Of a stretch of DNA of 19,146 nt, positions 8,535 to 18,109 are shown in pieces (position 1 is the first letter of the stretch; each line of letters starts with the position of its first letter). Below the pieces are notes generated by a model. The model made no database searches, was not told the DNA's origin, and saw only the letters and a list, made by a program, of their open reading frames with translations. The translations under genes and the position numbers were made by a program. This stretch comes from a virus, in the UHGV virus genome UHGV-1607510; one strand, given 5' to 3'.

Positions 8535-9251
8535 ATGGAAAATAAAAAATCACTGACGACAGAACAGCTGGAAGACGCTAAGCGGCTTAAGGCTTTGTAT
8601 GAGTCAAAAAAGAAAGAATTGGGAATAACCCAATACTCAATCGCTGATGAACTGGGTATCACCCAAGGAGCGGTAGGGCATTATCTTAATGGCAGAAATG
8701 CGCTAAACGTTGAGGTTGCATCTGGTTTTGCACGATTGTTGCAAGTCTCAATTGCTGATTTTAGCCAGTCAATTGCTGCCAAGGTTGCAGAACAGGCAGA
8801 AAGCCTTAAGAGCGATGCCAACGTAAGGTATGCAGGGGAATACAGAGCAGGAAAGAGGTATCCGGTGTTAAGCAGTATCCAGGCTGGCTCGTGGTGTGAA
8901 GCATGCGAACCATACACCATTAAAGACATAGATGTTTGGCTTGAGTCTGACGCGCATATTCAAGGTAATGCGTTCTGGCTTAAAGTGGAAGGTGATTCAA
9001 TGACGGCACCGGTTGGGTTAAGCATTCCAGAGGGAACATTCGTTCTTTTCGATACCGGAAGGGAGGCAATCAACGGCAGCTTGGTCATAGCAAAACTTTC
9101 TGACTCTAACGAAGCAACATTCAAGAAGCTGATAATCGACGGCGGAAATAAATACCTCAAGGGACTTAATCCTGCATGGCCTCTCGTGCCAATCAATGGA
9201 AACTGCAAGATTATAGGCGTTGCAATTGAGACAAAACTCAGACTGGTTTGA
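8535..9251 (+). CDS. cI: CI prophage repressor (HTH plus S24 LexA-like autopeptidase domain)
   Basis: 238-aa ORF with HTH (ITQYSIADELGITQGAVGHYLNG), Ala-Gly cleavage site (SIQAGSW), catalytic Ser (VEGDSMTAPVG) and Lys (ATFKKLI). Collinear with lambda CI (TQEQLEDARRLKAIYEKKK...). Confidence 0.9.
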   Translation: MENKKSLTTEQLEDAKRLKALYESKKKELGITQYSIADELGITQGAVGHYLNGRNALNVEVASGFARLLQVSIADFSQSIAAKVAEQAESLKSDANVRYAGEYRAGKRYPVLSSIQAGSWCEACEPYTIKDIDVWLESDAHIQGNAFWLKVEGDSMTAPVGLSIPEGTFVLFDTGREAINGSLVIAKLSDSNEATFKKLIIDGGNKYLKGLNPAWPLVPINGNCKIIGVAIETKLRLV

Positions 9252-9268
9252 TCACGCAAGGGGCGAAT

Positions 9269-9637
9269 ATGGTTGGAACCGCTATAGCAAGCTTTTTAGG
9301 GATGTTGGCAATATCGACAATTTACTGCTTAGCGCATGCTTTTATTGCGAAATCTCTATCAGAAAAAATAAGCCAGGCTTGGGCGCATAGATCAGCTCGT
9401 TTCATGATTCTGGTGATCATAGCAATACAAGGGATATCTGCATTTATCCTCTATGGATCAAGCTTATACCTATTGTATCAAGGCGCGACATTTACGCCTT
9501 ACACCAGTGATTACGGAACCCTATACGATGGTAGTGAAGACATCTCTATGGCTTGGATCGTCTTTGGTTTATCTATGGCCGTGTCTGTTGTAGCAGACAT
9601 CATTAAGGTAATTCTCGTCTTAACCTTCGCTGACTAA
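9269..9637 (+). CDS. Small integral membrane protein (122 aa, 3 predicted TM helices) downstream of cI
   Basis: ATG 9269 with AAGGGG RBS (5-nt spacer), 17 nt after the cI stop. Hydrophobic segments VGTAIASFLGMLAISTIYCLAHAFIA, FMILVIIAIQGISAFILYGSSLYLLY and AWIVFGLSMAVSVVADIIKVILVLTF. The track start (TTG at 9248) overlaps the cI stop and is less likely. Confidence 0.6.
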   Translation: MVGTAIASFLGMLAISTIYCLAHAFIAKSLSEKISQAWAHRSARFMILVIIAIQGISAFILYGSSLYLLYQGATFTPYTSDYGTLYDGSEDISMAWIVFGLSMAVSVVADIIKVILVLTFAD

Positions 9638-9769
9638 CCCATAATCCCGGAAGCAATAGCTATCGGGATCCACTTCACATATCCCGCATAAAAAGCACTG
9701 AACAAGCAGACACCGAAAAAAATAAATATCCTTTGTATTCATTTGTTTATCATTATTTCATCAAAAATA

Positions 9770-9811
9770 AATACCTTGGGTATTTACACAATAAAATACC
9801 TACAGTATTCT
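9770..9811 (+). promoter_or_regulatory. PL promoter with operators OL2 and OL1
   Basis: -35 TTTACA (9783-9788), 17-bp spacer, -10 TATTCT (9806-9811). OL2 AATACCTTGGGTATT at 9770-9784 and OL1 AATACCTACAGTATT at 9795-9809, spaced 25 bp as at OR. A degenerate third site AATATCCTTTGTATT lies at 9725-9739. Confidence 0.6.
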
Positions 9812-9857
9812 TTAGCCATCAGCAGGACGCTGGTAGCCAAACGGAACAGATTGGCAG

Positions 9858-9897
9858 GCTCTTTAACATTGATGGGATTGTCCCGCCGAAATGCGGG
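9858..9897 (+). promoter_or_regulatory. nutL site (boxA GCTCTTTAACA plus boxB CCCGCCGAAATGCGGG)
   Basis: boxA at 9858-9868 matches the rrn/lambdoid boxA consensus. boxB at 9882-9897 is identical to the nutR boxB. Located between PL and the N-like gene. Confidence 0.7.
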
Positions 9898-10005
9898 AAC
9901 CAAAGAGTAGTTGGCTTTGGGGTGACGTGAAGTGCAGATGCACGACGGCAACCGGAAGATAAGCACCCGGCGCGTCACCGCCAAAGTCAATCATCGGAGG
10001 TCAAC

Positions 10006-10278
10006 ATGACAGTAGTCATTACATATCTGGCTGACGATAACGCCAGAAATCGCCGCAGAGCACGCAGACAGGCTCAACGTGAACAGGCAATGCAAGAACA
10101 GCGACTGGCGCGAAAGATTGCGCTAAAGCTCTCTGGTTGCGTCAGAGCAGATAAAGCAGCATCACTCGGAAGCCTTCGCTGCAAGAAGGCAGATGAATGC
10201 AGTGGAAGTATTTGCCTGCCAAACGTAGCCATTTACGCGGCAGGCTACCGGAAATCAAAACAACTGACAGCCAGGTAA
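10006..10278 (+). CDS. N-like transcription antiterminator (P22 gene 24 type)
   Basis: 90-aa ORF with GGAGG RBS and an N-terminal arginine-rich motif (NARNRRRARRQAQREQ). First gene after PL-nutL. The C-terminus VAIYAAGYRKSKQLTAR resembles P22 gp24 as recalled. Confidence 0.75.
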   Translation: MTVVITYLADDNARNRRRARRQAQREQAMQEQRLARKIALKLSGCVRADKAASLGSLRCKKADECSGSICLPNVAIYAAGYRKSKQLTAR

Positions 10279-10281
10279 GTG

Positions 10282-10506
10282 ATGAATCAGACATACATTC
10301 CATCATGCTTGAGAAATCTGCCAAAGCAGAAAGCAAAGCCCCGCAAGCAAGCCATAAAGGACGCTAAGGCAGAGGTTATTGATCAAGCAATACAATTGCT
10401 CAGGGAGGAGTTAAGAAGTGGCAAGCTCGAAGGAATGATGATGCCCTATCAGCGCGGATATCTATCGGCGATTAGTAAGTTGGAAGTATTGAAGAGTGAA
10501 TTATGA
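10282..10506 (+). CDS. Hypothetical small helical, Lys-rich protein (74 aa)
   Basis: ATG 10282 directly after the N stop. Product MNQTYIPSCLRNLPKQKAKPRKQAIKDAKAEVIDQAIQLLREELRSGKLEGMMMPYQRGYLSAISKLEVLKSEL. Stop overlaps the next start (ATGA). Confidence 0.5.
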   Translation: MNQTYIPSCLRNLPKQKAKPRKQAIKDAKAEVIDQAIQLLREELRSGKLEGMMMPYQRGYLSAISKLEVLKSEL

Positions 10507-11039
10507 ACTATCTGGAATTTCCGGATGGTTCATTGTTTTGGCAGCAAACCACTTATTTGAGGCGAGATATGAGAAAATCATGGAACGTACCTTTTCCTGA
10601 ATCAGAAACTGAACATGATGGAATGCCTGTTTTCTGGAGATTCCAGGCGACAGTTGAAGAAGATGGAATCAAAATATTCGCACTTCAATATATAGCTTTT
10701 CATCAGACAGAGCATTATGCATGGTTGGTTCCTGCGCATTGGATTGTTGATTTTAAACCAGCACCAAATCAGTGGTTACGGGAATGGAAACAAAGGATAA
10801 ATAGATATGCAATTAAGAAAGTAGCAAAAAATGCAGAAAGATCTTTTGCATTCCCAACGAAGAAACTTGCCATTGAGAGCTTATTGCGCCGGAAGAAATA
10901 CCATTTAATAAGAATCAAACAAGATTTGGCTGTTGTATCAACTCTTGTTGATGGGATGAAGAATATTGATACATCAACACCAGATATTGAATATAATTTT
11001 GGACACAACCAAGAAACAGAAAATTGGGTATTCTACTAG
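10503..11039 (+). CDS. Hypothetical protein (178 aa), AT-rich gene
   Basis: ORF MNYLEFPDGSLFWQQTTYLRRDMRKSWNVPFPESETEHDGMPVFWRFQATVEEDGIKIFALQYIAFHQTEHYAWLVPAHW... The 3' half is visibly more AT-rich than the neighbouring phage genes. Followed by an intrinsic terminator. Confidence 0.6.
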   Translation: MNYLEFPDGSLFWQQTTYLRRDMRKSWNVPFPESETEHDGMPVFWRFQATVEEDGIKIFALQYIAFHQTEHYAWLVPAHWIVDFKPAPNQWLREWKQRINRYAIKKVAKNAERSFAFPTKKLAIESLLRRKKYHLIRIKQDLAVVSTLVDGMKNIDTSTPDIEYNFGHNQETENWVFY

Positions 11040-11064
11040 GCCGCATAGTCGGCCTTTATTTTTG
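11038..11064 (+). terminator. Intrinsic terminator after the 178-aa ORF
   Basis: AGGCCG-CATAGT-CGGCCT followed by TTATTTTTGG. Confidence 0.5.
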
Positions 11065-11085
11065 GCATAAACAACAGAGGCTAAC

Positions 11086-11382
11086 ATGGAATTTAAAGGT
11101 ACTGAAGGTAAGTGGGAAATAATGATGGACGGCGATGAGATTAAAATCATCCAGGCAGACTCTCTTGAAAATGGCACAGGCTGGCGTTCGTATATTGCAA
11201 TCTGTGAGGAAGTTCAATGCATTGAAGATGCCAATCTAATAGCGGCAGCGCCTGACCTTCTCGAAGCACTTCAGTTATTACTTAAGCAAACCAAAAATAG
11301 AACAACGACAACATATCCAGAATGGTATGGAGCTGTTAATAAAGGTCTCGCAGCAATCAGAAAAGCTCTTGGGGATAAGTAA
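11086..11382 (+). CDS. Hypothetical protein (98 aa) with an IAAAPDLLEAL motif
   Basis: ATG with AGAGG RBS. Product MEFKGTEGKWEIMMDGDEIKIIQADSLENGTGWRSYIAICEEVQCIEDANLIAAAPDLLEALQLLLKQTK... The motif resembles AEFIAAFNPKVALALLDE in the ORF at 17642-18109. Confidence 0.55.
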   Translation: MEFKGTEGKWEIMMDGDEIKIIQADSLENGTGWRSYIAICEEVQCIEDANLIAAAPDLLEALQLLLKQTKNRTTTTYPEWYGAVNKGLAAIRKALGDK

Positions 11383-11570
11383 TGAAAGTAAAAATAACTG
11401 CTTCTAATACCAGTTTTGTTAGTGTTGGTGATATTACAGACGTAATAACAAACCATGATGGAACACAAGTTATGTGGTCTGATTTTTGTAAAAGATATGA
11501 GCGAGTCACTTGGTGTAAACTCGTATGGGGCGTCGAATACGAAGAATTACCTGAAATGCATGGCGAATAA
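11382..11570 (+). CDS. Hypothetical small protein (62 aa)
   Basis: Start overlaps the previous stop (TAATG). Product MKVKITASNTSFVSVGDITDVITNHDGTQVMWSDFCKRYERVTWCKLVWGVEYEELPEMHGE. Confidence 0.45.
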   Translation: MKVKITASNTSFVSVGDITDVITNHDGTQVMWSDFCKRYERVTWCKLVWGVEYEELPEMHGE

Positions 11571-11665
11571 GCACTGTGTATTCATTCCAACGAGTGAATA
11601 CACGGAGCAATGTCGCTCGTAACTAAACAGGAGCCGACTTGTTCTGATTATTGGAAATCTTCTTT

Positions 11666-11693
11666 GCCCTCCAATGTGAGGGCAGTTTTTTTT
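11666..11693 (+). terminator. Intrinsic terminator immediately upstream of the coiled-coil gene
   Basis: GCCCTC-CAATGT-GAGGGC followed by AGTTTTTTTT. It ends 13 nt before the GGAGG RBS of the next gene. Confidence 0.6.
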
Positions 11694-11705
11694 GACGGAG
11701 GATAT

Positions 11706-12674
11706 ATGAGTGAAGTAACAGATTTAGTTGTTATTGAAAAAGCAAATGCAATGACTGTATTTCAGTCTGCCGACCAGATTGAAGAAATTCTCCAAAAGGT
11801 TGAACGTGAAGTTATGTCCTTTGTGCCTGATATCACAACGGCAAAGGGCAGAAAGGAGATCGCTTCTCTGGCGTATAAAGTTGCGCAGACGAAAACATAT
11901 CTCGATGGTCTTGGCAAAGACCTTGTTGCTGAACTGAAGGAAATTCCAAAGCTAATTGATGCCAACCGCAAGACAGTGCGTGATCGCCTTGATGAGCTGA
12001 AAGCCAAGGCACGCCAGCCTCTTACTGATTATGAGGAAGAACAGGCGCGGATTAAAGCCGAAGAAGAAGCTAAGGCAGCAGCTGAAGCTCTCGCAAAGCA
12101 AATTGAGTCTGACCATGAAATAGCGATTTTGATGGATCGAGAATTTGACCGCCAAAGAGAAGAGACAAGACTCAAAGCGGAGCAGGAAAAGCGAGAGCAT
12201 GAAGAACGCTTAAAAAGAGAAGCTGAAGAGAAAGCCAGAGCTGAAGCCGAAGCAAAGGCAAAAGCCGAAATTGAAGCAGCAGCAAGGCGAGAAGCAGAAG
12301 CTAAGGCAGCAGCGGAACGTGCAGAGCGTGAACGCATTGAAGCCGAGCAACGAGCACAGCGCGAAGCAAAAGAGGCAGCAGAACGAGCTGAAAGAGAAAA
12401 GCAGGCGGCAATTGAAGCAGAACGCAGAAAAGCACAGGAGGAGGCTGAACGAATCCGTCGCGAGGCTGAAGCAAAAGAGCAAGCCAGAATAGCAGAAGAA
12501 AAAAGAATCAAGGACGAAGAAGAGCGTAGAGCAAAGGATAAAGCTCACCGGAAAGAAGTAAATAACAAAATACTTGCTGACCTTATCAAGGTTGGCGCAT
12601 CAGAAGATGTTGCTAAAAATATCATAACAGCCATCGTAAAAGGCGAAGTATTCGCAACAAAAATAACCTACTAA
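11706..12674 (+). CDS. Coiled-coil protein with a long Glu/Ala/Lys/Arg-rich low-complexity repeat region (322 aa)
   Basis: ATG 11706 with GGAGG RBS. The track start at 11610 reads through the upstream terminator and is rejected. N-terminal globular part (MSEVTDLVVIEKANAMTVFQSADQIEEILQKVEREV...), then about 150 aa of EAEAKAKAE/AERAERE-type repeats, then a C-terminal tail. Confidence 0.65.
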   Translation: MSEVTDLVVIEKANAMTVFQSADQIEEILQKVEREVMSFVPDITTAKGRKEIASLAYKVAQTKTYLDGLGKDLVAELKEIPKLIDANRKTVRDRLDELKAKARQPLTDYEEEQARIKAEEEAKAAAEALAKQIESDHEIAILMDREFDRQREETRLKAEQEKREHEERLKREAEEKARAEAEAKAKAEIEAAARREAEAKAAAERAERERIEAEQRAQREAKEAAERAEREKQAAIEAERRKAQEEAERIRREAEAKEQARIAEEKRIKDEEERRAKDKAHRKEVNNKILADLIKVGASEDVAKNIITAIVKGEVFATKITY

Positions 12675-12698
12675 TAAAACCAACATAAGGAACCACCC

Positions 12699-12830
12699 AT
12701 GATTTACGCAATCGCGGGAGGCGCTCGCATGGGTGCCTTCCAACTAAATGAATCTTTACTTGAACGAATCACCCGTAAATTACGTGACGGATGGAAAAGA
12801 GTTGAGGTCTTATTATGCGCAATGAAATAG
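12699..12830 (+). CDS. cIII: CIII (FtsH-inhibitor) homologue
   Basis: Not in the track (43 aa). ATG 12699 with AAGGA RBS. Product MIYAIAGGARMGAFQLNESLLERITRKLRDGWKRVEVLLCAMK. The central region matches lambda CIII (ESLLERITRKLRDGWKRL) by recall. Confidence 0.7.
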   Translation: MIYAIAGGARMGAFQLNESLLERITRKLRDGWKRVEVLLCAMK

Positions 12831-12966
12831 CCATCAATCACCAGATGCTTCGTGCAGCACAGAACAAAGCAGTAATAGCCAGATTTATTGGTGATTCAAA
12901 AATGTGGATTGAAGCAAATAAAGCGATGAAATCAGCTATCAACCTTCCGTGGTATCGCAGGAAATG
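12814..12966 (+). CDS. Kil-like small protein (putative host division inhibitor)
   Basis: 50-aa ORF overlapping the cIII 3' end by 17 nt, with GAGG RBS. Product MRNEIAINHQMLRAAQNKAVIARFIGDSKMWIEANKAMKSAINLPWYRRK. The Kil assignment rests on position after cIII and a loosely remembered IATFIGDEKM-type motif. Confidence 0.45.
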
Positions 12967-13134
12967 AGTTTTACAGATAACTGGTCAGACGAAGAATTCA
13001 TTCGTCAGATGAAAGAATTAATCGGTAACGAAGGAGATATTCATGTCACTTGCAACCACAGTGAAGGAGAGCAAGTTACAGAGACGCATGTACACGCAGC
13101 AGGCGTTAATGTATCGCCAGAAGGGAGATCGTGA
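12963..13134 (+). CDS. Hypothetical small acidic protein (56 aa); Arf-like by position only
   Basis: ATG 12963 overlapping the previous stop (ATGA). Product MSFTDNWSDEEFIRQMKELIGNEGDIHVTCNHSEGEQVTETHVHAAGVNVSPEGRS. The track ORF starts upstream at 12949. Confidence 0.35.
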
Positions 13135-13221
13135 AGGTGTTCGCGTATTTTTAAATGCGGCAAAGACTGAAGTATTAAATCAGCGTTATTTCCTTGGGCC
13201 ATGTCCATTCTGAGGTGAATT

Positions 13222-13929
13222 ATGGATTTGAATAAATTCGATGAGCCATTCAGCCCTGAAGATATCGAATGGCGAATACAGCAAAGCGGTAAAACACGCG
13301 ATGGAAAGGTGTGGGCTATGGTGCTGGCTTATGTCACGAACAGGGCAATCATGAAACGCCTGGACGATGTTTGCGGCAAAGCAGGATGGCGCAATGAATA
13401 CCGCGATATTCCCAACAACGGAGGCGTTGAATGCGGCATATCAATCAGGATTGATTCCGAATGGGTAACCAAATGGGATGCTGCTGAAAACACGCAGGTA
13501 GAAGCCGTAAAAGGTGGTCGTTCCGGTGCAATGAAGCGCGCTGCCGTTCAGTGGGGAATCGGTCGGTATCTGTATAACATTGAGGAAGGTTTCGCACAAA
13601 CATCTCTCGATAAAAAGCAGGGATGGCACAGGGCAAAACTCAAGGATGGAACAGGATTTTACTGGCTCCCTCCATCGCTGCCGGGATGGGCAATCCCAGC
13701 ATCAGATAACAAACCATCACCAGAAAATACCAACCAGAAATCTCCATCGGTTGACTGCGAGCAAATCCTGAAAGACTTCAGCGATTATGCGTCAACAGAA
13801 ACTGACAAGAAAAAACTCATCGAGCGTTATCAGCGTGACTGGCAATTAATGGCTGGCAACGAGGAGGCGCAGGCTAAATGCGTTCAGGTAATGAACATCA
13901 GAGTTAACGAACTAAAACAGGCGGCATAA
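13222..13929 (+). CDS. Single-strand annealing protein (Rad52/Erf-type recombinase)
   Basis: 235-aa ORF with GAGGTG RBS. The core VEAVKGGRSGAMKRAAVQWGIGRYLYN resembles the conserved Rad52/Sak/Erf annealing-domain signature. Immediately followed by SSB. C-terminal tail ...TETDKKKLIERYQRDWQLMAGNEEAQAKCVQVMNIRVNELKQAA. Confidence 0.7.
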   Translation: MDLNKFDEPFSPEDIEWRIQQSGKTRDGKVWAMVLAYVTNRAIMKRLDDVCGKAGWRNEYRDIPNNGGVECGISIRIDSEWVTKWDAAENTQVEAVKGGRSGAMKRAAVQWGIGRYLYNIEEGFAQTSLDKKQGWHRAKLKDGTGFYWLPPSLPGWAIPASDNKPSPENTNQKSPSVDCEQILKDFSDYASTETDKKKLIERYQRDWQLMAGNEEAQAKCVQVMNIRVNELKQAA

Positions 13930-17641: not shown

Positions 17642-18109
17642 ATGAGCGAGATTAACCATCAGGCACTGCGTGAGGCGGTGGAAAATGCAACGTGGGGAGA
17701 CTGGGACTCATATAAACCACACCGTGGCGCACGTGGTTATGAGGTCCGACTAAGTAGCCAAGCCATTGCGCAACACGTTCTGAAAAACAACGCTGAATTT
17801 ATTGCTGCCTTTAATCCAAAGGTTGCTTTGGCACTACTGGATGAACGGGAAAGGAACCAGCAATACATCAAACGCCGCGACCAGGAGAACGAGGATATTG
17901 CGCTTACGGTTGGGAAACTGCGTGTTGATCTGGAAGCCGCAGAGAAGCGGATCGCTGAACTGGAAGCACGGGAAATATCGCTCCCAGAACGTAGCAGTAT
18001 GTTTCATCGAACAGATTTTCACGAGGATTACCAAACGGTAATGGCATACAAAGTTTCTGAAGTCATCGATGCAATCCGCGCCGCTGGCATTCGCATCAAA
18101 GGAGAGTGA
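17642..18109 (+). CDS. Hypothetical protein, possibly Ead/Ea22-like family
   Basis: 155-aa ORF MSEINHQALREAVENATWGDWDSYKPHRGARGYEVRLSSQAIAQHVLKNNAEFIAAFNPKVALALLDERERNQQ... The FIAA.NP...ALLDE motif is recalled from Ea22-like prophage proteins. Confidence 0.5.
   Translation: MSEINHQALREAVENATWGDWDSYKPHRGARGYEVRLSSQAIAQHVLKNNAEFIAAFNPKVALALLDERERNQQYIKRRDQENEDIALTVGKLRVDLEAAEKRIAELEAREISLPERSSMFHRTDFHEDYQTVMAYKVSEVIDAIRAAGIRIKGE

Follow-up and report, generated by a model that had tools for sequence, protein, structure and literature searches.

What does the small two-gene unit at positions 11086 to 11570 of the UHGV virus genome UHGV-1607510 do for the phage that carries it, and is its first protein related to a second protein encoded far downstream in the same operon? 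The window, by which we mean the whole 19,146-nucleotide (nt) stretch analysed, is by sequence a fragment of a lambdoid E. coli prophage. An earlier note had described two open reading frames (ORFs) between two intrinsic terminators, and had proposed that the protein of the first, of 98 amino acids (aa; ORF98), and that of the ORF at 17642-18109 (ORF155) are divergent, Ead/Ea22-like members of one family. Our data indicate that ORF98 belongs to a large family of its own whose N-terminal head is remotely homologous to that of Ead/Ea22, and that the gene pair is an accessory unit swapped into the early-left operon. The genes and the domain in question are as follows, and both genes of the pair were found where they had been placed, each with an ATG start.

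11086 to 11382, + strand: ORF98, 98 aa, phrog_1273/PF27050 ('XkdD/Y8K6 family'), predicted five-strand sheet plus three helices.
11382 to 11570, + strand: ORF62, 62 aa, a small acidic orphan protein, phrog_10407 (E 1.6e-44).
17642 to 18109, + strand: ORF155, Ead/Ea22 family (PF13935, 102.7 bits, E 3.3e-29).
17681 to 17845, + strand: head-like region of ORF155 (residues ~14-68), a degenerate copy of the head domain (ATWGDW ... NNAEFIAAFNPKVALALL).

ORF98 is a typical member of a catalogued, uncharacterised family. Its residues 1-97 align to profile positions 4-100 of 103 in phrog_1273 (E 6.9e-32), which PHROG files under 'unknown function'. The PF27050 assignment comes from annotated homologs and a RefSeq name, not from a model score of ORF98 itself: it is precomputed on homologs P0001-P0010, which are 88-99% identical to ORF98, and RefSeq gives the name 'XkdD/Y8K6 family phage-associated protein' to WP_021575658.1, whose sequence equals that of ORF98. 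When 1.84 billion cluster representatives were searched with a profile, at least 28,821 50%-identity clusters matched at E<=1e-3, and nearly all of the best 150 matches are 85-125 aa long, with a few tandem duplications. Given the full-length match, the size of about 100 aa, and the presence in ORF98 of all three family motifs (FKGTxGxW, LIAAAPxLLxAL, and AIxKALG), we see no substantive difference between ORF98 and the family known as PF27050, 'XkdD/Y8K6', or phrog_1273. The isoelectric point is 4.7 for ORF98, and the family median is 4.9. No family was found for ORF98 at E<=1 in the local Pfam copy, which lacks the PF27050 model, and the NCBIfam copy, which lacks the model behind the RefSeq name, gave nothing for ORF98 or ORF62; PADLOC found no anti-phage defence family for either at E<=0.1. 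A PDB sequence search with ORF98 gave a single weak match, judged spurious, and no PDB structure was found that resembles the ORF98 model. Searches of the literature for the motif and for XkdD, PF27050, and Y8K6 yielded nothing relevant, on function or otherwise.

The motif that suggested a link to ORF155 is present in both proteins, as ANLIAAAPDLLEALQLL at residues 49-65 of ORF98 and AEFIAAFNPKVALALLDE at residues 51-68 of ORF155, and the Pfam match confirms the Ead/Ea22-like label that ORF155 had been given. The same label did not hold for ORF98. PF13935, with a gathering score of 27 bits, gives no match to it at E<=1, placing ORF98 outside the Ead/Ea22 family as Pfam defines it. BLASTP of ORF98 against ORF155, a pairwise comparison that had been proposed as a check, aligns nothing at E<=100, and when a hidden Markov model (HMM) of 135 diverse ORF98 relatives is run over the 254 ORFs in the window, ORF155 comes third with a non-significant E of 1.1. 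Taken as a bare pair, the two sequences are not distinguishable from chance, and significance appears only through intermediates.

For this we used nine diverse Ead/Ea22 N-termini (from HK106, P27, ST160, Gally, Rac-SA53, FSL SP-016, YpM_41, BTP1, and Pae BR243a), gathered by tblastn against phage genomes; a first homolog search had given only near-identical N-termini. Most of the nine read …A-T-P-G-x-W, then a variable stretch of ~35-55 aa, then A-N-A-E-F-I-A-A-x-N-P-x-x-x-L-A-L-L-D-E, and the ORF98 family consensus is F-K-G-T-P-G-P-W, a variable stretch, and A-N-A-x-L-I-A-A-A-P-E-L-L-E-A-L-Q. Both motifs are therefore common to the two families, in equal order and with similar spacing. Profile-profile comparison with hhalign matched the ORF98 family to the Ead/Ea22 N-termini with a probability of 92.4% (E 5.3e-7) over 60 columns spanning both motifs, and a second run gave 93.5% (E 2.3e-7) for the motif region. 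The hhalign score of 39.1 compares with 10.4 ± 2.4 (maximum 24.9) for 200 column shuffles of the Ead alignment, and with 24.5 ± 1.6 (maximum 35.5) for 200 shuffles of 6-column blocks, which keep pieces of the motifs intact. When a family HMM built without Ead sequences was run against 6303 ORFs of fetched loci, 12 of the 16 hits that followed the 95 family hits were Ead-type; these 16 are sub-threshold, spanning E 3e-4 to 0.2, and the set holds only 21 Ead-type ORFs. On these comparisons we take the ~60-residue N-terminal head, made up of the TPGPW strand, a variable sheet, and the NAxLIAAAP helix, to be homologous in the ORF98 family and Ead/Ea22.

The proposal of two divergent members of one family is thus half right: remote homology of the head domain is detected by hhalign, but ORF98 sits in a separate family, phrog_1273/PF27050. 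The earlier note had been ready to give up the relationship if no significant alignment extended beyond the short motif and no domain assignment was shared. This is the outcome that the pairwise and Pfam comparisons gave, and not the outcome at the profile-profile level. We found no paper on a link between the ORF98 family and Ead/Ea22, and a literature search on Ea22 and defence gave nothing relevant.

Of the proteins encoded in the lambda exo-xis region, Ea22 is both the largest and the least understood. Among Ead/Ea22 proteins (PF13935; P22 Ead, lambda Ea22, and the Stx variants), the head segment, ATPGxW … NAxFIAAxNP, occurs in many members, not in all. Where present it resembles the ORF98 family in its (A)TPGxW strand, variable beta region, and NAxFIAAxNPxxxLALL helix, with spacing that differs by one residue (IAAAP in the ORF98 family, IAAxNP in Ead/Ea22). 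The two also have in common their operon, their non-essential early accessory character, and mosaic evolution (PMC10834534). In contrast, ORF98 has no leading 'INYQALREAAEKA' helix, and neither the long central coiled coil (…LLDERERNQQYIKRRDQENEDIALTVGKL…) nor the variable C-terminal domain of Ead/Ea22; it ends with a hairpin of helices 55-70 and 77-94. The helix that follows the motif is predicted to fold back on helix 3 of its own chain in the ORF98 model, whereas in Ead/Ea22 it would run into the coiled coil. In solution, the Ea22 proteins of lambda and P27 form tetramers (PMC10834534). Lambda Ea22 itself (L005, J02459 29847-30395) lacks the TPGxW-to-IAAxNP head and reads …AMHDDWGFDADLFHELVTPSIVLELLDERE…, as though the head domain had been lost by an internal deletion. 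A C-terminal tail, …GIRIKGE, is common to ORF155, lambda Ea22, and Gally EaD.

The anatomy of the ORF98 family is one of short fixed segments separated by variable ones:

11095 to 11115, + strand: core segment 1, KGTEGKW (family consensus FKGTPGPW), with F3, T6, G8, and W10 near-invariant.
11116 to 11229, + strand: variable module 1, the beta-sheet region (residues 11-48).
11230 to 11274, + strand: core segment 2, ANLIAAAPDLLEALQ (family consensus (A)NAxLIAAAP(D/E)LLEALQ), comprising helix 1, the Pro kink, and the start of helix 2; the motif first noticed, and a crossover point.
11275 to 11352, + strand: variable module 2, the rest of helix 2, a loop, and the start of helix 3 (residues 64-89).
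11353 to 11373, + strand: core segment 3, AIRKALG (family consensus AxxAIxKALG).

In the alignment of 135 diverse members, F3, T6, G8, W10, A49, L51, I52, A54, A55, P56, L58, L59, A61, L62, A90, I91, K93, and A94 are near-invariant, and L95 and G96 are invariant as well in 24 closer relatives. Except for T6 and K93, the near-invariant residues are hydrophobic or small, and the alignment has no conserved polar set hinting at catalysis. With the same 135 members, AlphaFold2 (AF2) modelled ORF98 with a predicted local distance difference test score (pLDDT) of 92.4 and a predicted template modelling score (pTM) of 0.79, superseding an earlier run with 24 close homologs in which the N-terminal half was poor (pLDDT 70). 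The model has strands at 10-15, 18-23, 28-30, 33-35, and 38-43 and helices at 46-53, 55-70, and 77-94, with a kink at P56, and the three core segments map to the first strand, the junction of helices 1 and 2, and the end of helix 3. With this layout, and with conserved residues that are nearly all hydrophobic or small, the three segments probably pack together as a structural core.

The variable modules reassort independently of each other, with crossovers within the motif. To follow them, we cut 247 members at the motif and clustered each variable part on its own. The ORF98 beta-module was found with 37 different C-modules, the ORF98 C-module with 6 different beta-modules, and another C-module with 8; variable module 2 alone forms 126 clusters among the 247 proteins. 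Recombinant junctions lie inside the LIAAAP motif, as in L033, where a 5´ motif half of the type found in phage CurroJimenez_Bas106 is joined to a 3´ motif half of the type found in the window. In sampled E. coli genomes, megablast matches end at query position 220 (window 11259), also inside the motif, or at 11115, just after KGTEGKW, and 11115 is also where DNA homology with the Bas106 variant stops. Synonymous sites in the motif vary freely across members, so its conservation is at the protein level.

The pair as a whole is an insert whose limits can be drawn by comparison with a phage that lacks it:

11040 to ~11563, + strand: inserted cassette (~524 bp), comprising T1, ribosome-binding site, ORF98, and ORF62, delimited against the collinear 'empty' phage vB_EcoP-683R2.
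11038 to 11064, + strand: T1, terminator-like hairpin, AGGCCG-CATAGT-CGGCCT then a T-run; the hairpin overlaps the preceding gene's stop codon.
11077 to 11080, + strand: Shine-Dalgarno-like GAGG, 5 nt before the ORF98 ATG.
11664 to 11693, + strand: T2, terminator-like hairpin from a terminator scan, a 7-bp GC-rich stem (11664-11685) then T8.

Phage vB_EcoP-683R2 matches the window collinearly as far as the stop codon at 11039, and the match resumes at 11565 (by blastn, window 10537-11039 corresponds to L015 1138-1640, and window 11565-12000 to L015 1644-2078), and the cassette is absent. At this empty site T1 is missing and T2 is present. Because the collinearity extends to both sides and T2 is kept, the insert runs from 11040 to ~11563 and T2 belongs to the backbone. 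The junctions are sharp, and the cassette start adjoins the stop codon of the preceding gene. Both terminators that had been described were recovered by the scan, T1 as a stem at 11038-11055 followed by TTATTTTT. The idea of a terminator-flanked two-gene unit therefore has the anatomy right, but only T1 travels with the insert. The hairpin energies are -9.6 kcal/mol for T1 and -12.9 kcal/mol for T2, each a modest improvement on shuffled sequence (z -1.7 and -2.0). We nevertheless argue that both are real from their placement on the coding strand, directly after stop codons or in intergenic DNA, and from their conservation in related phages.

Other relatives fill the same slot differently. Phages mEp043 and APC_JM3.2 carry an ORF98 that is 96-97% identical, followed by an unrelated 52-aa ORF, and APC_JM3.2 additionally carries a DUF2528 gene. 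CurroJimenez_Bas106 has a different family member followed by a 70-aa ORF, and in PA28 a 'superinfection exclusion protein' gene comes after T2. The occupants seen in relatives thus include DUF2528, 'superinfection exclusion protein', Nmad5, and the 52-aa and 70-aa ORFs. The whole cassette occurs in 60 of 5426 E. coli genomes, and some part of it in 538. T1 (~39 nt, in the 11038-11080 region) recurs at 95-100% identity upstream of unrelated genes in E. coli genomes that were sampled along the ranked hits, one example being a gene for an 'Nmad5 family putative nucleotide modification protein', and it behaves as a shared boundary or linker element for differing cassettes. Altogether, the cassette is a case of ordinary lambdoid mosaicism, a swap-in accessory unit.

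Its place in the genome is consistent with this. The cassette occupies the accessory interval that separates N from cIII/kil in the N-dependent early-left (pL) operon, and annotated E. coli genomes, as well as phage mEp043, show the same arrangement of genes. Host takeover, counter-defence, and modulation of the lysis-lysogeny decision are typical of this slot, and genes of the N-cIII interval include restriction alleviation and exclusion functions. ORF98 and ORF62 are like other accessory genes of this interval in being a discrete insert with sharp junctions, alternative occupants, and a recurrent T1 boundary; they differ in that restriction alleviation and exclusion have no counterpart shown for ORF98 or ORF62.

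We suggest that the unit is a swap-in pL cassette encoding a small acidic protein that acts by binding, with its targets determined by the variable modules, a reading to which we give a probability of about 45%. In this model, N would let pL transcripts read through T1, and the cassette would then be expressed. No sigma-70-like promoter was found on the + strand in 11040-11086 in a scan limited to sigma-70 consensus sites, and the gap between T1 and ORF98 is only 21 nt. Lying behind a terminator and lacking a recognisable promoter, the cassette is probably expressed only under N read-through, and ORF98 and ORF62 would be delayed-early products of infection or induction rather than proteins of the lysogen. 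ORF98 itself would be a small acidic scaffold, not an enzyme, that acts stoichiometrically by binding another protein; a binder is most likely in view of the acidic character of the family, the lack of conserved polar or catalytic residues, and the shuffling of the variable regions as modules. The variable modules would form the binding surface and choose a host or rival-phage factor. The slot and the neighbours point to host takeover, counter-defence, or lysis-lysogeny modulation as likely roles.

Several points weigh against this reading. The function proposed for ORF98 has no experiment or annotated homolog behind it, and its status as a binder comes from the absence of catalytic residues rather than from an observed interaction. 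PADLOC, NCBIfam, and the local Pfam copy are blank for ORF98 and ORF62, as is the literature on XkdD function. The packing of the core was read from the predicted secondary structure, not from coordinates. Terminator function and N read-through are carried over from the lambda paradigm, and a scan for sigma-70 consensus sites leaves room for a weak or non-canonical promoter. Finally, module shuffling could simply be general lambdoid mosaicism, with no selection for new specificities.

Other explanations of the same observations fare less well. ORF98 could be a diverged Ead/Ea22 paralog that does the job of Ea22, favouring lysogeny, so that the operon would hold two copies. The head domain common to both at the profile level fits such a history, as does the location of ORF98 and ORF155 in one pL operon, and Ea22 of lambda and of Stx phages has been reported to be pro-lysogenic (PMC7093339, PMC10834534). 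This is nonetheless distinctly unlikely. Besides drawing no PF13935 match at E<=1, ORF98 lacks both the coiled-coil core, which bears the Pfam/InterPro signature, and the C-terminal domain. Moreover, the pro-lysogenic effect was measured on lambda Ea22 (PMC7093339), a protein that is itself without the head segment; a 63-aa segment present in Stx Ea22 variants is absent from lambda Ea22 (PMC10834534). Because lambda Ea22 lacks the shared domain, its phenotype is not transferable to ORF98. The converse explanation, that ORF98 and ORF155 are unrelated and the likeness is a chance resemblance of two Ala/Leu-rich helices, would account for the empty BLASTP result and for the rank of ORF155 in the family HMM search, and the short motif does supply most of the hhalign score, as the average of 24.5 for block shuffles illustrates. 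Yet the true score lies above all 400 shuffles, the TPGPW motif is aligned as well, in the right order and at the right spacing, and Ead-type ORFs account for 12 of the 16 top hits below threshold, against a background of 21 in 6303 ORFs, all of which makes chance very improbable.

Two further alternatives concern the cassette rather than the domain. ORF98 and ORF62 might form an obligate two-component system, such as a toxin-antitoxin or an effector-chaperone pair. They share one base (TAATG), an overlap that suggests translational coupling, both proteins are small and acidic, and the genes occur together in 60 E. coli genomes. However, a nearly identical ORF98 precedes the unrelated 52-aa ORF in mEp043 and APC_JM3.2, and in 52 viral loci the downstream neighbours of family genes fall into 8 clusters and 21 singletons, the ORF62 type being present in 6. 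The families also differ greatly in size, with 19 clusters for ORF62 and more than 28,000 for that of ORF98, and neither protein matches PADLOC or a toxin-antitoxin family. We consider such a pair quite improbable; by sequence, ORF62 is a facultative neighbour of ORF98 and not an obligate partner, and the description of the two as a two-gene cassette does not extend to relatives. It is also improbable that we are dealing with an autonomous moron that the repressed prophage expresses and that gives the lysogen a trait such as superinfection exclusion. Terminators on both sides, insertion as a discrete unit, and the genes annotated as superinfection exclusion in the same slot of other phages are what a moron would lead one to expect, but the 21-nt gap behind T1 shows no + strand sigma-70-like promoter, the downstream terminator is backbone and it is the upstream one that travels with the insert, and family members also occur in strictly virulent Vequintavirinae phages (~145 kb).

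The reading of a swap-in pL cassette with a modular binding protein could be taken further. TPGPW-LIAAAP proteins as a whole might be a huge repertoire of modular binders, with a fixed core, two exchangeable modules, and the motif as the recombination joint, that phages could re-target by swapping modules, towards host factors of defence or takeover; Ead/Ea22 would then carry the same head on a tetrameric coiled coil. This extension is speculative and, in our estimate, unlikely. The locus itself is ordinary; what makes it useful is the domain link, together with the size of the family and the module architecture. A family of at least 28,821 clusters has no function assigned in any library searched and no PDB structure found to resemble the ORF98 model. 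The profile link ties it to an optional head domain of Ead/Ea22, and the measured Ea22 phenotype belongs to a protein without that domain. Should the modules indeed determine what is bound, phages would encode in this family a large and untapped collection of protein binders.

ORF62 is a real gene under purifying selection, given that its length is kept and that the ratio of nonsynonymous to synonymous substitution rates (dN/dS) is 0.22 relative to a diverged homolog in L031. All 19 clusters of its family are enterobacterial, and no Pfam domain was found in it.

Beyond the cassette, the window has the gene order of a lambdoid early region:

8535 to 9251, + strand: cI-like repressor, upstream of the N-type antiterminator.
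10006 to 10278, + strand: N-type antiterminator (Pfam PF25694 N_peptide, E 1.1e-15), which heads the early-left operon holding the cassette.
Other + strand genes: Kil, Rad52-family annealase, SSB, 3'-5' exonuclease-like protein, Abc2, and the Ead/Ea22 protein (17642-18109).
Genes on the - strand: cII, O, DnaB-type helicase, NinB/X/G, phosphoesterase, Q, and holin.

On either side of the N gene are two + strand ORFs, at 9248-9637 (129 aa) and 10279-10506 (75 aa), which gave no Pfam match. The ORF at 10503-11039 (178 aa) is phrog_1636, a family with no assigned function.

The wider ORF98 family also includes some unusual members. Tandem duplications within one protein, giving 150-190 aa with two LIAAAP motifs, are seen in P0277, P0278, P0330, P0341, P0376, P0379, and P0385, and one viral locus (L076 3992-4646) has two family genes side by side. 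P0241, a 723-aa protein with ~12 repeats (…DSRHAALLKALGEVEIEDEELDV…), matches the family profile at E 1e-25 only through positions 66-97, the AxxAIxKALGE end, so that the match probably reflects repeats or low complexity and not kinship. In Klebsiella phage KB57, one of the virulent Vequintavirinae, the 85-aa KB57_029 (L099 1504-1761) has an ORF98-type beta-module with about 50-55% identity over residues 4-52, and its gene is directly upstream of one for a PnuC-like nicotinamide riboside transporter. Salmonella phage 40 (L100), of the same subfamily, likewise has an 85-aa family gene, with two small ORFs between it and a PnuC-like gene downstream. The labels 'nucleotide pyrophosphohydrolase' and 'DNA polymerase exonuclease subunit' that stand under matches in some Klebsiella phage records are misleading; in K54lambda1.1.1 such a label is on a pseudo-flagged coding sequence with in-frame stops, and the actual match is in an 85-aa family member.

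The backbone DNA just downstream of the cassette contains one more structured element:

11574 to 11605, + strand: perfect 14-bp hairpin between cassette and T2 (dG -21.7 kcal/mol, z -8.1).

This hairpin lies ~60 nt upstream of T2 and is kept in 14 fetched loci, including the cassette-less phage, and a 136-nt stretch ending shortly after T2 (region 11565-11693) folds with z -4.5. Rfam gave no match in 9500-13300, the hairpin included. The hairpin may mark a site of RNA processing, or may form a small structured RNA or a leader of the coiled-coil gene downstream. The listed ORF of that gene, 11610-12674, begins upstream of T2; the conserved protein, annotated 'TolA'/coiled-coil (phrog_1376), begins at the ATG at 11706, after GGAGG. 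Over the T2 region, phage Bas106 annotates a separate 32-aa ORF (MSLVTKQEPTCSDYWKSSLPS…).

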